A DNA stretch of 42,920 bases, taken from the IMG/VR virus record IMGVR_UViG_2541047955_000001, positions 1 to 42,920 of that record; one strand, 5' to 3'. The position numbers and the translations under genes were made by a program. Under the pieces are notes generated by a model. It was not told the origin of the DNA and did no database searches. It saw nothing but the letters and a program-made list of their open reading frames with translations. This document shows positions 1,369 through 18,261 of this stretch, one piece after another (position 1 is the first letter of the stretch; the number at the start of each line of letters is the position of its first letter). This DNA comes from a virus. Taxonomy: Duplodnaviria > Heunggongvirae > Uroviricota > Caudoviricetes.

Positions 1369-1444
1369 GCCGATATAGCTCAGTTGGTAGAGCAGCGCAT
1401 TCGTAATGCGAAGGTCGTAGGTTCGACTCCTATTATCGGCACCA
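1369..1444 (+). tRNA. thrW: tRNA-Thr (anticodon CGU)
   Basis: 76-nt cloverleaf GCCGATATAGCTCAGTTGGTAGAGCAGCGCATTCGTAATGCG...ATCGGCACCA; anticodon loop TTCGTAA; classic P22 attB tRNA. Confidence 0.93.
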
Positions 1445-1458: not shown

Positions 1459-2619
1459 TTACCGCACATTTAAGTAAACCACGTTCTCCTCTTGTGCCGT
1501 ATTTGTGCCATTGCGACTTATAATCGCATCGATTTTGCTCGCGTGCTCGGTGAGATGCCCGGCTGAAAGGTGAGCGTATCTTTGAACCATTTCGAGAGTT
1601 TCCCATCCCCCCATCTCTTTAAGTGCAAGAAGAGAGACTCCGGACTGAACCAGCCAGCTTGCCCAGGTGTGTCTCAGGTCATGGAATCGGAAGTTGCTAA
1701 TGCCTGCCCGCTTTAACGCTCCCTTCCATGCTTTGTTGCTATCGGTTCTCATCTTCCTTACCGCAGCTGTTTTTGTTCCGTCGCTTCGGTAGGCAGGTTT
1801 GGTGTGGACAAATACCCATCTCTTATGGAGCCCCTGCTGTTTTCTTAATATCTGGCATGCGGTTTCGTTAAGAGGAACTCCGATCGCATTGCCAGCTTTT
1901 GTTTCATCAGGGTGCATCCATGCCATTTTCTTATCCAGATCGACCTGTGACCACTCAAGGTCTGTAACGTTGGAACGGCGAAGGCCTGTCGTGATTGCAA
2001 ACATGACCACAGGGAAGAAATGAGGAGCAATTTCTGCAAACAGGCGCTTCGATTCCTCCTCTGTAAGCCATCTGATTCGTCCATTCTTAACGCGTGGTGT
2101 TGATATTTTGGGTGCCCTGTCAAGCCATCCCCATTCAACAGCCATATTGAGAATAGCACGAAGTATTGCCAGATGCCGCGTCTTCGTTCCTTTGCTTGCC
2201 AGCTTTGGTTTATACTCCGGCACTGGCTTGCCAAGCCGCAAACACCTGTCCCGGCTCATTTCCCAGTTCAGGCGATGGCGGCGGTTTTCCATCCCGTCTA
2301 CCGCCTCCATTATTTTTTCTGTTGTTATGTCAGAGAGAATGGTTTCTCTGAAGTGCAACATCCAGAACGATATAATGCTCTTGTCATCATCAATGGACTT
2401 CTTATCCGCTTTCTCACGCAGCCACCGTATGCAGGCTTCCTTGAATAGCTTTTTCGGTGATTCCCCGAGATTTTTTACTCTCCACGCTTCTGCTTTCAGA
2501 CGATCGTGAAGTTCTTGCGCTTGCCTTTTGTCCGATGTTTCAAGAGAGCGTCTAACTCTTGATCCATCTGGCGCGACGAAATCGCAGTGCCACGTGCCAC
2601 CGCGTAGTTTGATTGACAT
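1459..2619 (-). CDS. int: tyrosine integrase, P22 Int type
   Basis: 386 aa; C-terminal HDLRHTWASWLVQSGV...YAHL catalytic region; N-terminus resembles P22 Int; adjacent to tRNA 3' end. Confidence 0.95.
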   Translation of the reverse strand: MSIKLRGGTWHCDFVAPDGSRVRRSLETSDKRQAQELHDRLKAEAWRVKNLGESPKKLFKEACIRWLREKADKKSIDDDKSIISFWMLHFRETILSDITTEKIMEAVDGMENRRHRLNWEMSRDRCLRLGKPVPEYKPKLASKGTKTRHLAILRAILNMAVEWGWLDRAPKISTPRVKNGRIRWLTEEESKRLFAEIAPHFFPVVMFAITTGLRRSNVTDLEWSQVDLDKKMAWMHPDETKAGNAIGVPLNETACQILRKQQGLHKRWVFVHTKPAYRSDGTKTAAVRKMRTDSNKAWKGALKRAGISNFRFHDLRHTWASWLVQSGVSLLALKEMGGWETLEMVQRYAHLSAGHLTEHASKIDAIISRNGTNTAQEENVVYLNVR

Positions 2620-3545: not shown

Positions 3546-3820
3546 TTCGTTCAAATTGCGTTTACTTCTTGGCGTTCTGCTCATCCATATCGATATACCA
3601 TGGGTTGCTTCCCTTGGGCATGTTTAACGACTGCTCGCGATAGTATCTGATGCGCTCCATGAAATATTCGCGTGAGTGCTCAGGTTGCTATCATGATACC
3701 TGCTCAGTGATAACAGGTATGTTAAGGCGCTCTCTGTACTCCATGCCTGATGCTGCAAGGTCAACGTTTACCTTGTTCTGTTTTTCTTTCGATTTCTCGG
3801 CGATGTTATGCCTGACATTG

Positions 3821-4063
3821 TCAACCCGCCTCCTTCTGAACATAACGGTTATAAATCAGTCCCTGAGGGCCATAAGGAAGCGGGATGTGCAACTCCTCTG
3901 GTTCAGAAACTATCCATTCCCCGGCCATCTCGGCTGGAGAGGTAATGATAAGTTGTTTGCTAATAAAAGGACCACTCCTCTCAACAACAAGCTTACCATC
4001 TTCATTAATAAAAGCTTGGATGTCAGGTGTGCTTCCACACTTGGTGATGCAGCGTTTGAACAT
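3821..4063 (-). CDS. hypothetical protein
   Basis: Track ORF 3821-4105; start placed at internal Met with GGGGGA-type RBS; the overlapping plus-strand ORF looks antisense-like. Confidence 0.4.
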   Translation of the reverse strand: MFKRCITKCGSTPDIQAFINEDGKLVVERSGPFISKQLIITSPAEMAGEWIVSEPEELHIPLPYGPQGLIYNRYVQKEAG

Positions 4064-5653: not shown

Positions 5654-5950
5654 TCAGTCATTACTGATAGCGCCATAGCGTGAGCGGTAATTACGCAGGC
5701 GCGGGTCGATATATTCAGGGAAGTGGGTATATGTGGCTTTGCGGAATGGTCGGATTGATGTCTGGTAAATTCGCTCGCGTTCTTCTTTCTCTGCAAGCCA
5801 TATACAGTGGCGAAATTCCTTTTCCTCTTTCGTTTCCTGCGGTAGAGACATTATCCGGTCGTAGTTTTTTCTGAATTTATCCAGCACCTCCGATACGGAA
5901 TTGCCGGAACATCGGCGTGGGTCATCCTCACCATACAGAGGCGCTGGCAT
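5654..5950 (-). CDS. hypothetical protein
   Basis: 98-aa ORF left of the ssb/erf pair, the position occupied by abc genes in P22. Confidence 0.5.
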   Translation of the reverse strand: MPAPLYGEDDPRRCSGNSVSEVLDKFRKNYDRIMSLPQETKEEKEFRHCIWLAEKEERERIYQTSIRPFRKATYTHFPEYIDPRLRNYRSRYGAISND

Positions 5951-5973: not shown

Positions 5974-6357
5974 TCAGAATGGGATGGAATCGTCGTATAC
6001 AGGAGTGTTCTGCTGGTTACTACTTTGCTGCTGCGGGCCATTTCCTGAAGCTGTAAATCCAATCTTTGCATTCAGTAATTCAAGAGTAATTGATTGACCA
6101 TTTTGCCCCTGATAAACATCAACCCTGATGTTTTCTCCGGTAATTTCCACAATGCCACCTTCAACAAGAACGCTACGGTGGTAATCCGCTTGCGCTCCTG
6201 GCTTGGCAAATACAACGGCGCTGTAGTTTGTCCATTCTTTCTTTTTTGTCTGGCGATCGTAATACTGAACGCCAGCACGGATGTTGAATCCGATATTTTC
6301 CCCGGCCTGAAACTCTCTTGCGGGCTTGTTTAGTCTTACAGTAATCGAATGTGCCAT
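5974..6357 (-). CDS. phage single-stranded DNA-binding protein-like
   Basis: 127 aa from internal Met; C-terminal acidic tail ...PVYDDSIPF resembles the SSB DDDIPF tail; start overlaps the erf stop (TAATG). Confidence 0.65.
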   Translation of the reverse strand: MAHSITVRLNKPAREFQAGENIGFNIRAGVQYYDRQTKKKEWTNYSAVVFAKPGAQADYHRSVLVEGGIVEITGENIRVDVYQGQNGQSITLELLNAKIGFTASGNGPQQQSSNQQNTPVYDDSIPF

Positions 6358-6962
6358 TAAGCAGCAGCTCCTTCTAATTCGTCTCGTCTGATGTTGTAAA
6401 CGTCCTGCGCTTTGTGCTGCTCCGGTGTGCCTTCGAGCATCTTCCACGCTTTGGCGAACGCCTGTTTAAGCTCTTCCACGGTGTTTTTCTGCAATGCTGC
6501 GTCAGTGAATGCTTTTAGAACCTGTTCAGGTGTAGGTGATAGTTTTGATTGCTTTGCTGCTGCGTTCTGCTGATGTTTATGCTCGTCGGTATCTGCATCT
6601 TTCGCATCATCAATGCCGAACAAACCATTGAGGCAATACTTGCGTGCATAAGAGCTTGTAGCTCCCGTAACTTGTGCAGAATCCATTCCTTTCTTGCTTT
6701 CTTCCTCTCGTGCAAGGGCGGTTGCCGTATGACTGTTTTCGCCATCGGTAATAGTTGCCGTGGCTTTCACGTAATACCGATCACCAATCAACACAACTTC
6801 ATCGCTGATTGATAAAAACAGGCCATTCAGTAACGGCTTAACGCCTTCAAGAATGTCTTCGCAGCTTCTGTATTTATATTTACCGAATGAGTTGTACTGA
6901 TTCTTTGGCGCGTTCAGATTCTCCTGAATAGCTGCCAGTCTTGCGTAAAATTCTTTGCTCAT
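6357..6962 (-). CDS. erf: Erf recombination protein
   Basis: MSKEFYARLAAIQENLNAPKNQYNSFGKYKYRSCEDILEGVKPLL... matches P22 Erf as recalled. Confidence 0.88.
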   Translation of the reverse strand: MSKEFYARLAAIQENLNAPKNQYNSFGKYKYRSCEDILEGVKPLLNGLFLSISDEVVLIGDRYYVKATATITDGENSHTATALAREEESKKGMDSAQVTGATSSYARKYCLNGLFGIDDAKDADTDEHKHQQNAAAKQSKLSPTPEQVLKAFTDAALQKNTVEELKQAFAKAWKMLEGTPEQHKAQDVYNIRRDELEGAAA

Positions 6963-7511
6963 ATGATTGTTCTCAGAATGGACACGGCCCAAGGAAATAA
7001 CGCTGATTTAATACTTCGACTCGGGACAAGTTAAGGCATACCCGCATTCCTTCGCGGTCGCCATTATGTCGATACCAGAGAGCTTTCTGCGTGTACATGC
7101 GCCTCTGTAACTTGCTCTCCTTCACTGTGGTTGCAAGTGACATGAATATCTCCTTCGTTACCGATTAATTCTTTCATCTGACGAATGAATTCTTCGTCTG
7201 ACCAGTTATCTGTAAAACTCATTTCCTGCGATACCATGGAAGGTTGATAGCTAATTTCATCTCTTTATTTGCTTCAAGCCACATTTTGGAATCACCAATA
7301 AATCTGGCTATTACTGCTTTGTTTTGTGCAGCACGAAGTATCTGGTGATTGATGGCTATTTCATTGCGCATAATAAGACCTCAACTCTTTTCCATCCGTC
7401 ACGTAATTTACGGGTGATTCGTTCAAGTAAAGATTCATTTAGTTGGAAGGCACCCATGCGAGCGCCTCCCGCGATTGCGTAAATCATGGGTGGTTCCTTA
7501 TGTTGGTTTTA

Positions 7512-8480
7512 TTAGTAGGTTATTTTTGTTGCGAATACTTCGCCTTTTACGATGGCTGTTATGATATTTTTAGCAACATCTTCTGATGCACCAACCTTGA
7601 TAAGGTCAGCAAGTATTTTGTTATTTACTTCTTTCCGGTGAGCTTTATCCTTTGCTCTACGCTCTTCTTCTTCCTTGATTCTTTTTTCTTCTGCTATTCT
7701 GGCTTGCTCTTTTGCTTCAGCCTCGCGACGGATTCGTTCAGCCTCCTCCTGTGCTTTTCTGCGTTCTGCTTCAATTGCTGCCTGCTTTTCTCTTTCAGCT
7801 CGTTCTGCTGCCTCTTTTGCTTCGCGCTGTGCTCGTTGCTCGGCTTCAATGCGTTCACGCTCTGCACGTTCCGCTGCGGCCTTAGCTTCTGCTTCTCGCC
7901 TTGCTGCTGCTTCAATTTCGGCTTTTGCCTTTGCTTCGGCTTCAGCTCTGGCTTTCTCTTCAGCTTCTCTTTTTAAGCGTTCTTCATGCTCTCGCTTTTC
8001 CTGCTCCGCTTTGAGTCTTGCCTCTTCTCTTTGGCGGTCAAATTCGCGATCCATCAAAATCGCTATTTCATGGTCAGACTCAATTTGCTTTGCGAGAGCT
8101 TCAGCTGCTGCCTTAGCTTCTTCTTCGGCTTTAATCCGCGCCTGTTCTTCCTCATAATCAGTAAGAGGCTGGCGTGCCTTGGCTTTCAGTTCATCAAGGC
8201 GATCGCGCACTGTCTTGCGGTTGGCATCAATTAGCTTTGGAATTTCCTTCAGTTCAGCAACAAGGTCTTTTCCAAGACCATCGAGATATGTTTTCGTCTG
8301 CGCAACTTTATACGCCAGAGAAGCGATCTCCTTTCTGCCCTTTGCCGTTGTGATATCAGGCACAAAGGACATAACTTCACGTTCAACCTTTTGAAGGATT
8401 TCTTCAATCTGGTCGGCAGACTGAAATACAGTCATTGCATTTGCTTTTTCAATAACAACTAAATCTGTTACTTCACTCAT
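7512..8480 (-). CDS. hypothetical coiled-coil protein with Glu/Arg/Ala/Lys-rich low-complexity region
   Basis: Track ORF 7512-8534; start at MSEVTDL with GGAGGA RBS; ~170-aa tract of AEAKAKAEIEAAARREAEAKAAAERAER-type repeats. Confidence 0.6.
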   Translation of the reverse strand: MSEVTDLVVIEKANAMTVFQSADQIEEILQKVEREVMSFVPDITTAKGRKEIASLAYKVAQTKTYLDGLGKDLVAELKEIPKLIDANRKTVRDRLDELKAKARQPLTDYEEEQARIKAEEEAKAAAEALAKQIESDHEIAILMDREFDRQREEARLKAEQEKREHEERLKREAEEKARAEAEAKAKAEIEAAARREAEAKAAAERAERERIEAEQRAQREAKEAAERAEREKQAAIEAERRKAQEEAERIRREAEAKEQARIAEEKRIKEEEERRAKDKAHRKEVNNKILADLIKVGASEDVAKNIITAIVKGEVFATKITY

Positions 8481-8614
8481 ATATCCTCCATCAAAAAAAT
8501 TGCCCTCACATCGGAGGGCAAAGAAGATTTCCAATAATCAGAACAAGTCGGCTCCTGTTTAGTTAAGAGCGACATTGCTCCGTGTATTCACTCGTTGGAA
8601 TGAATACACAGTGC

Positions 8615-18105: not shown

Positions 18106-18180
18106 GGGTCAGTCGTATAAAGGTCATTACGGAAGGCTGTTAACCTTCTTATCGTGGTTCGAGTCCACGCTGTCCCGCCA
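18106..18180 (+). tRNA. tRNA-like, Asn (GUU) anticodon, imperfect stems
   Basis: 75 nt ending CCA; anticodon stem GAAGG/CCTTC, loop CTGTTAA; T-loop TTCGAGT; one T-T mismatch in acceptor and D stems. Confidence 0.45.
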
Positions 18181-18185
18181 AATAT

Positions 18186-18261
18186 GCTGGTTTAGCTCCA
18201 ATGGTAGAGCGGTCGCCTTGTAAGCGAATGGGTAGCGGTTCAAGTCCGTTAACCAGCACCA
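18186..18261 (+). tRNA. tRNA-Thr (UGU)
   Basis: 76 nt; 7-bp acceptor stem GCTGGTT/AACCAGC; D stem GCTC/GAGC; anticodon loop CTTGTAA; T-loop TTCAAGT; 3' CCA. Confidence 0.6.

Follow-up and report, generated by a model that had tools for sequence, protein, structure and literature searches.

The window analysed here, a stretch of 42,920 nucleotides, carries on its minus strand an erf gene directly followed by a short gene whose product is labelled a hypothetical protein. [quoted passage not shown] A first-pass annotation, made from the sequence alone, had read the two genes as a recombinase and a short SSB-like protein expressed together.

Genomic context and organization of the locus

The window corresponds to a prophage in E. 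coli that is inserted at tRNA-Thr(CGT) (1369..1444), adjoining proA, and whose integrase is encoded at 1459..2619. Its leftward early region contains erf, the short gene and abc2; upstream of erf lie two small ORFs, then kil (7371..7219) and then cIII (7487..7356), while a LexA-family repressor, cro, cII, a replication protein and a DnaB-type helicase are found further right. Between positions 5900 and 7000 the DNA is 97-98.6% identical to a stretch of HK97, HK106 and HK542 whose genes are annotated Erf, hypothetical protein and Abc2. The identity is 96-98% with several Stx-converting phages and 99.9% with a bloodstream isolate of E. coli. A match to the stretch was detected in 583 of 5,426 complete E. 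coli genomes, approximately one in nine.

The erf gene (6357..6962, minus strand) encodes a protein of 201 residues, and its assignment to the Erf family of single-strand annealing proteins, already made in the first-pass annotation, is borne out by matches to Pfam ERF PF04404 (E=5e-44, 150 bits against a cutoff of 25) and PHROG 155 (8e-57), as well as by 75% identity to P22 Erf. The downstream gene, a homologue of the HK97 gp40 gene, had been described as encoding 127 residues ending in YDDSIPF, with no strand given; it does so at 5974..6357 on the minus strand (127 residues plus the stop codon), the product beginning with MAHSITVRLN and ending with NTPVYDDSIPF. After a gap of 23 nt, the third gene of the recombination module, abc2, starts at 5950 and extends over 5654..5950 on the same strand; its product of 98 residues, an anti-RecBCD protein, matches Pfam PF11043 (E=3e-61), and the E. 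coli record with 99.9% identity lists it as 'phage anti-RecBCD protein'.

As read from the sequence, and in agreement with what had been noted before, the stop codon of erf and the start codon of the short gene overlap at TAATG (6355..6359, minus strand), a single base at 6357 being common to the TAA (6359..6357) and the ATG (6357..6355). TAATG is present at this start in 84 of the 91 related loci scanned, most of them close relatives, and is also kept in Serratia and other divergent Erf/SSB pairs; thus, the overlap is not attributable to chance. A Shine-Dalgarno-like AGAAGGAG lies inside the last erf codons at 6375..6368 (6368..6375, minus strand) and is a plausible ribosome-binding site of the short gene, the upstream context that contains it recurring in related loci. 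A longer reading of this gene, with 157 residues from a GTG at 6447, was rejected because it overlaps erf, and because the MAHSIT N-terminus and the Shine-Dalgarno-like sequence are the features conserved in the family.

Predicted fold of the 127-residue protein

Conventional domain models hardly recognise the product of the short gene. No Pfam family matched it at E<=1, TIGR00621 scored 13.8 bits, below its cutoff of 53.95, and a phmmer search against PDB sequences returned nothing relevant. Among 39 members of its family, referred to as SSB-1b, the Pfam SSB model PF00436 touched only 8, with a best E of 0.0038, and the profile built from these 39 relatives scored best, among PDB sequences, against Streptomyces coelicolor SSB (E=0.16). 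The 'hypothetical protein' label assigned by PGAP is thus due to the curated SSB models missing this lineage. PHROG 44, described as 'single strand DNA binding protein', matched the protein with E=1e-25, and hhalign aligned the 39-relative profile with E. coli SSB at 86% probability.

In this same alignment, Y32, W42, F50 and Y82 of the 127-residue protein are paired with W40, W54, F60 and W88 of E. coli SSB, the residues that stack onto single-stranded DNA, so that the four DNA-stacking aromatic positions appear to be conserved. When the family was clustered at 50% identity, giving 119 representative clusters, an aromatic residue was found at position 42 in 118 of them, at position 50 in 117 and at position 82 in 82. 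Thr43 is aligned with His55 of E. coli SSB, a residue that matters for tetramer formation and is changed in the ssb-1 mutant, whose tetramer is destabilised.

The first-pass annotation had proposed fold prediction as a check of its SSB-like reading, and the outcome was positive for an OB fold. AlphaFold2, run with the alignment of 39 relatives, produced a model of mean pLDDT 82, in which residues 1-104 (6046..6357, minus strand) are mostly above 90, with block values from 82 to 96, and display an OB topology of strands plus one helix at residues 55-63. Residues 107-127 are predicted to be disordered (pLDDT <50), and comprise most of a short linker rich in Q, N and S (residues 105-121, 5995..6045, minus strand; low pLDDT) and the C-terminal tip D-D-S-I-P-F (5977..5994, minus strand), which corresponds to D-D-D-I-P-F in E. 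coli SSB. Foldseek searches of the PDB with this model gave bacterial or mitochondrial SSBs or PriB for all of the top 50 matches, which are only moderate (E from 4e-5 to 1e-3, TM 0.4-0.55, rmsd 5-6 Å, 10-19% identity). In the BFVD, matches carrying a name were nearly all phage SSBs, the exceptions being a few 'uncharacterized' entries and a single dna-ligase entry, whose E lies slightly above 1e-3. Altogether, the predicted fold, the structural matches and the conserved tip agree with the SSB-like reading, and identification of the protein as a divergent phage SSB of the SSB-1b type is supported by these models.

The protein is predicted to have several features of E. coli SSB: an OB fold in which a single helix separates strands, aromatic residues at the four stacking positions, and a disordered linker that leads to a tip of the form D-D-x-I-P-F. 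On the contrary, it differs in its low identity (10-19%), in the Thr at the His55 position and in a linker of ~17 residues against ~56. The E. coli K-12 SSB sequence, used here for the host protein, has a counted length of 178 residues, in accordance with the earlier statement that the phage protein is the shorter one, a difference mainly explained by the short disordered linker.

The SSB-1b family, its tip and its conservation

Homologue searches collected 313 proteins, none of them with a precomputed Pfam SSB domain, and when 1.84 billion representatives were searched exhaustively with a profile, only 213 clusters were obtained at E<=1e-3. Judged by these searches, the SSB-1b family forms a small lineage of its own, which stays apart from the canonical SSBs. 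All its members consist of an OB domain of ~104 residues followed by a Q/P/G/N-rich linker that ranges from ~17 to ~100 residues, those with longer linkers reaching 145-215 residues in total. In most of them the last residues are D-D-x-I-P-F or closely similar, and a tip-like C-terminal end is present in at least 64 of the 119 representative clusters. Among close IMG/VR relatives, 76 of 76 are intact at 127 residues and end in YDDSIPF. Thus, the proposal that this end is an acidic C-terminal tail of SSB type holds in that it resembles the SSB tip and is kept across the family.

Comparison of the 127-codon ORF with seven divergent homologues gave pS values of 0.74-0.86, which are saturated, and pN values of 0.10-0.26, indicating strong purifying selection; relative to HK97, dN/dS is 0.21. 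These data bear on the possibility that the gene encodes an OB-fold protein other than an SSB, such as a primosome adaptor resembling PriB or an OB domain that binds proteins, or that it is decaying. PriB chains do occur among the Foldseek matches, the curated SSB models are all without a match, and frameshifted copies are found in phage HF4s (where the gene is annotated "ssb protein" in spite of its frameshift), in P0037 and at the HK97 3' end. However, PriB has neither a disordered linker nor an acidic tip, while the SSB-1b family has both, together with the SSB aromatic pattern, and decay is opposed by the strong purifying selection and by the intact state of all the close relatives. This possibility is consequently considered very improbable.

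The HK97 copy deserves separate consideration, since it is the type sequence of the family. HK97 gp40 was named SSB-1b from its AlphaFold 3 predicted fold (PMC12315714, Genome Res 2025), and the window copy resembles it both in sequence, with 97% amino-acid identity over the OB domain and 97% DNA identity along the locus, and in occupying the slot between erf and abc2. Unlike HK97 reference gp40, the window copy keeps the DDSIPF tip: in the reference, one extra A changes the end from ...DDSIPF* to ...DDSNPILI*, and the tip is destroyed. Should this 1-nt insertion prove real, HK97 can live with an SSB that has lost its tip. When the main text of PMC12315714 was searched for terms, neither an acidic tail nor a C-terminal tail nor IPF came up, a silence that may be due to the extra A in the HK97 reference.

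Gene neighbourhood of the SSB-1b family

The first viral-contig scan gave only loci 96-99% identical to the window, and diversity was obtained from look-ups of exact proteins and from scans with divergent members; a scan of genome contigs contributed at least 11 loci. Among the first seven diverse family members looked up, three lie directly after a Pfam-ERF gene and one after a gene assigned to Rad52_Rad22 by Pfam and to Erf-like proteins by PHROG. As for the other three, one follows two exonuclease genes, one sits among endonuclease VII-like genes, and one has only unrecognised neighbours. Four of four further members follow Erf with a 1-nt overlap. From these neighbourhoods, the SSB-1b family belongs to phage clusters for DNA recombination and DNA metabolism, where it is most often directly behind the gene of an annealing protein. 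The literature examined on phage SSBs, retrons and defence triggers held nothing specific to the family.

Such surroundings also allow weighing a role in replication, in which the 127-residue protein would mainly coat lagging-strand or rolling-circle single-stranded DNA and its adjacency to erf would merely reflect modular gene order. Phage SSBs commonly serve replication, and some family members adjoin DNA-polymerase-type exonuclease genes. On the contrary, the gene of the window sits between erf and abc2 in the recombination cluster, which runs leftward, whereas the replication protein and the DnaB-like helicase belong to a rightward replication module, and a one-base overlap binds it to erf in most loci. 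In addition, lambdoid phages generally replicate with the host SSB. A mainly replicative function is therefore judged improbable.

Erf and its C-terminal module

AlphaFold2 predicts that Erf consists of an N-terminal annealing domain and a disordered segment at residues 126-142, after which come three helices (145-158, 162-175 and 181-200). These helices make up a C-terminal module, here termed type A (residues ~145-201, 6360..6530, minus strand). The alignment behind this model is shallow, since the relatives listed in the full-length Erf search are all at least 79% identical. With the whole Erf model as query, Foldseek gave no match at E<=1e-3, and the homologue search with the 62-residue C-terminal piece retrieved only 16 fragment-like proteins.

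Alignment with P22 Erf shows the N-domain to be far better conserved than the C-terminal module, and the module also occurs on other proteins. The C-terminus of a P-loop "ATP-binding protein" from Erwinia phage vB_EhrS_59 matches it with 51% identity, and the module is present on a second, unrelated Erf core (loci L092, L112 and L118), whose N-domain is only 24-31% identical to the HK97-type cores compared. It is found as well on a P-loop ATPase that precedes the SSB-1b gene in a Leminorella prophage (L114).

Co-variation of the Erf module with the SSB tip

Sorting of 253 loci produced 64 distinct combinations of module and tip. Modules of type A (...AFAKAWKML.GT.EQ.KA...) or A-like account for 48 combinations, all with IPF or IPY tips, three of them being obvious point or frameshift variants. 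A second type, B (...AYAWT..L.GN..LL.KA...), accounts for seven combinations, all with W-D-D-x-[P/A]-P-F tips. No mixed combination of module and tip was found among these 55 distinct A/B combinations, and in L096, the only locus whose Erf has no module, the SSB-1b behind it has no tip either.

Types A and B are both found on each of two Erf cores, so that the pattern is not due to the Erf core itself, and it holds across two unrelated Erf cores plus a P-loop ATPase core. Neither does similarity of the OB domains sort by module type. As an example, loci L102 and L088, the latter a Serratia locus with a type B module, have Erf N-domains 94% identical, OB domains 82% identical and modules only 42% identical, and their tips differ. 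Co-variation of this kind suggests that the Erf C-terminal module docks the SSB tip directly, on the evidence of few independent switches. Linkage is made less likely as a cause of the pattern, but only in part, as the module abuts the SSB gene and independent events are few. That the three-helix module, of ~55 residues, is a portable receptor for SSB tips, organised in matched specificity pairs (type A with DDSIPF, type B with WDDxPPF), is offered as a tentative proposal, which we consider possible without holding it probable.

The tip might instead be directed at the host. In such a case, the protein would be mainly a hijacker or decoy of the host SSB interactome, its tip sequestering host SSB partners (for example ExoI, RecQ, RecJ, RecO, PriA or the chi subunit of Pol III) or redirecting them to phage DNA or away from it, and not being specific for Erf. 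Several observations agree with this: DDSIPF differs from the host DDDIPF at one position; the SSB-1b of the Leminorella prophage (L114) ends in PPMDFDDDIPF, identical to the E. coli SSB tail; the SSB gene adjoins abc2, which encodes another host-manipulating protein; and some family members are beside nucleases with no recognisable annealing protein nearby. Against it, the OB domain and the stacking aromatic positions are strongly conserved, although a pure tail decoy would have no need of them, and in the subgroup with W-D-D-x-P-P-F tips the departure from the host tip goes along with that of the Erf module, which points to a phage partner. Action as a decoy is thus regarded as rather unlikely. 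The decoy reading and that of Erf loading are not mutually exclusive.

Proposed mechanism

Considering all of the above, the locus is probably an HK97/HK75-type recombination module of a lambdoid P22-like prophage, composed of erf, the SSB-1b gene and abc2, read leftward within the early-left operon and devoid of a phage exonuclease, that would work as follows. Single-stranded DNA would be generated by Abc2-modified RecBCD or by another host nuclease, as established for P22. The 127-residue protein would then coat this DNA through its SSB-type OB domain, in line with the predicted fold and aromatic residues, while its short flexible linker would present the host-like D-D-S-I-P-F tip. This tip would recruit Erf, probably by way of the swappable three-helix module, as the co-variation and the precedents of the HK620 Sak4-SSB and Red-beta-SSB pairs suggest. 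Erf could subsequently load on the SSB-coated DNA, replace the SSB or ride on it, and anneal complementary strands. The TAATG overlap and the Shine-Dalgarno-like sequence inside erf would couple translation of the two genes, so that Erf and SSB-1b are produced together, a coupling to which the conserved 1-nt overlap points. More speculatively, the phage SSB may also engage host proteins that are partners of SSB, given that its tip is nearly identical to that of the host SSB.

Comparison with known recombination systems

Modules combining an anti-RecBCD protein, an SSB and a strand-annealing protein, without a nuclease, have been reported in 27 of 325 lambdoid phages (PMC12315714). With the P22 erf-abc1-abc2 cluster, the locus shares an Erf 75% identical, a homologous abc2 and a 1-nt overlap after erf, and the P22 model, in which Abc2 modifies RecBCD (PMC9836394), is the basis of the first step proposed above. 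In P22, the slot after erf is occupied by Abc1, a protein of 94 residues unrelated to SSB-1b, and Arf lies upstream; homology of the 127-residue protein to Abc1 was rejected, BLASTP giving no alignment at E<=100. At its C-terminal end, P22 Erf carries a divergent form of the module. Since P22 works without a phage SSB although its Erf is 75% identical, the phage SSB is an accessory, and not an essential, component.

Phage HK620 shows the same gene order of annealing protein, SSB and abc2 (sak4-ssb-abc2). Its SSB (HkaK, 'SSB-2') has an acidic tip, NDYPPF, and these last six residues are required for stimulation of Sak4, being needed for Sak4 binding to SSB-coated single-stranded DNA and for stimulation of annealing and recombineering (PMC5928155). 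Homology between HkaK and SSB-1b was also rejected, with an hhalign probability of 0.3%, the general character of the tip being all they have in common. Unlike in our locus, the HK620 annealase is a RecA-like ATPase (Sak4), without the Erf-type C-terminal module. Regarding lambda, the C-terminal domain of Red-beta is what binds the C-tail of SSB (PMC6393309), and Erf is predicted to resemble Red-beta in having a small three-helix C-terminal domain after a flexible linker, which is here proposed as the dock of the SSB tip; no sequence similarity between the two was detectable.

Significance

The pairing of erf with an SSB gene and the SSB assignment are already published, HK97 gp40 having been described as SSB-1b (PMC12315714), and the arrangement is common. 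The tip, the correspondence of aromatic residues and the co-variation of module and tip are modest additions, the last of them going beyond the literature examined, and do not define a new kind of system. They are of value for annotation, as the gene is labelled "hypothetical protein" and its type sequence, HK97 gp40, hides the diagnostic tail through a 1-nt insertion.

If confirmed biochemically, the co-variation would allow the recognition between phage annealases and their SSBs to be described by a simple rule. Were the portable-receptor proposal true, pairs of SSB-1b and annealase would be partly orthogonal loading systems, and the host-like character of type A would explain that type-A annealases also work with the host SSB. 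Recombineering proteins transfer poorly between hosts (PMC5928155, PMC6393309), a problem on which a rule for annealase-SSB recognition would bear, and, were the proposal true, swaps of tip and module would offer a way of adjusting how portable recombineering systems are.

SSB-1b C-Terminal Tails in HK97 and Other Loci

Comparison of the 3' end of the SSB-1b gene, the predicted SSB-family gene following erf, with that of its homologue in the HK97 reference (L001:4070-4459 vs. window 5974-6030) revealed one additional A near the end of HK97 gene 40, whose product is consequently 129 aa long and ends in DDSNPILI, versus 127 aa and DDSIPF in the window. The SSB tip, the C-terminal D-D-x-I-P-F motif, is therefore masked in the type sequence, while YDDSIPF is kept in all 76 close relatives from IMG/VR. 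Either the laboratory phage truly carries this extra nucleotide as a mutation, or the HK97 reference contains a sequencing error at that point. In phage HF4s (L002:2562-2957) the 127-aa gene is present in frameshifted form: the 94-aa 'ssb protein' and the adjacent 'putative phage protein' together correspond to it, the frame being switched past ...DRQTKRK.

Tails were also inspected in more divergent loci. The SSB-1b member of a Leminorella prophage (L114:1468-1914) terminates in PPMDFDDDIPF, the eleven C-terminal residues of E. coli SSB, and its tail looks as if it had been copied from a host SSB or had converged on one. On a metagenomic phage contig (L096:2944-4022), a short Erf of 176 aa lacking the C-terminal module is followed, across a gap of 26 nt, by an SSB-1b member whose tail is long and Q-rich and ends in ...NFNQPQR without the acidic tip, so that the Erf C-terminal module and the SSB-1b acidic tip are jointly absent in this locus.

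Neighboring ORFs and Other Elements

Just upstream of erf, two small overlapping ORFs of 56 and 57 aa (window 6973-7143 and 7064-7237, both on the minus strand) have matches in PHROGs 1723 and 2123, each of which carries the label 'recombinase', and are the positional counterparts of two small HK97 'recombinase' CDS upstream of erf. Neither matches Pfam Phage_Arf, and for proteins this small the label seems to be an annotation carry-over. The ORF at window 7512-8534 (minus strand; 322-340 aa), with a long, highly charged central region rich in E, A, K and R, is labelled a coiled-coil protein in the E. coli relative, and the HF4s annotation reads 'similar to phi80 Agt'; it showed no Pfam match and matched only PHROGs of unknown function.

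Elsewhere in the prophage, adjoining tRNA-Asn(GTT) and tRNA-Thr(TGT) genes are found at window 18106-18261 (plus strand). In the early-left stretch, the E. coli record that is 99.9% identical annotates 'DNA polymerase III subunit theta' as a pseudogene with a frameshift (L003:5663-5944); it maps to about 3562-3843 of the window (minus strand) and would be a phage-borne theta homologue.

The Erf C-Terminal Module on Other Cores

The predicted three-helix module ending Erf (window 6360-6530, minus strand) is also borne by P-loop ATPase proteins of Sak4-like appearance, for example gp42 of Erwinia phage vB_EhrS_59 (L098:1805-2668; 51% identity across 55 aa) and a protein of the Leminorella grimontii prophage (L114:578-1498). 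It has evidently been shuffled among different annealase cores.
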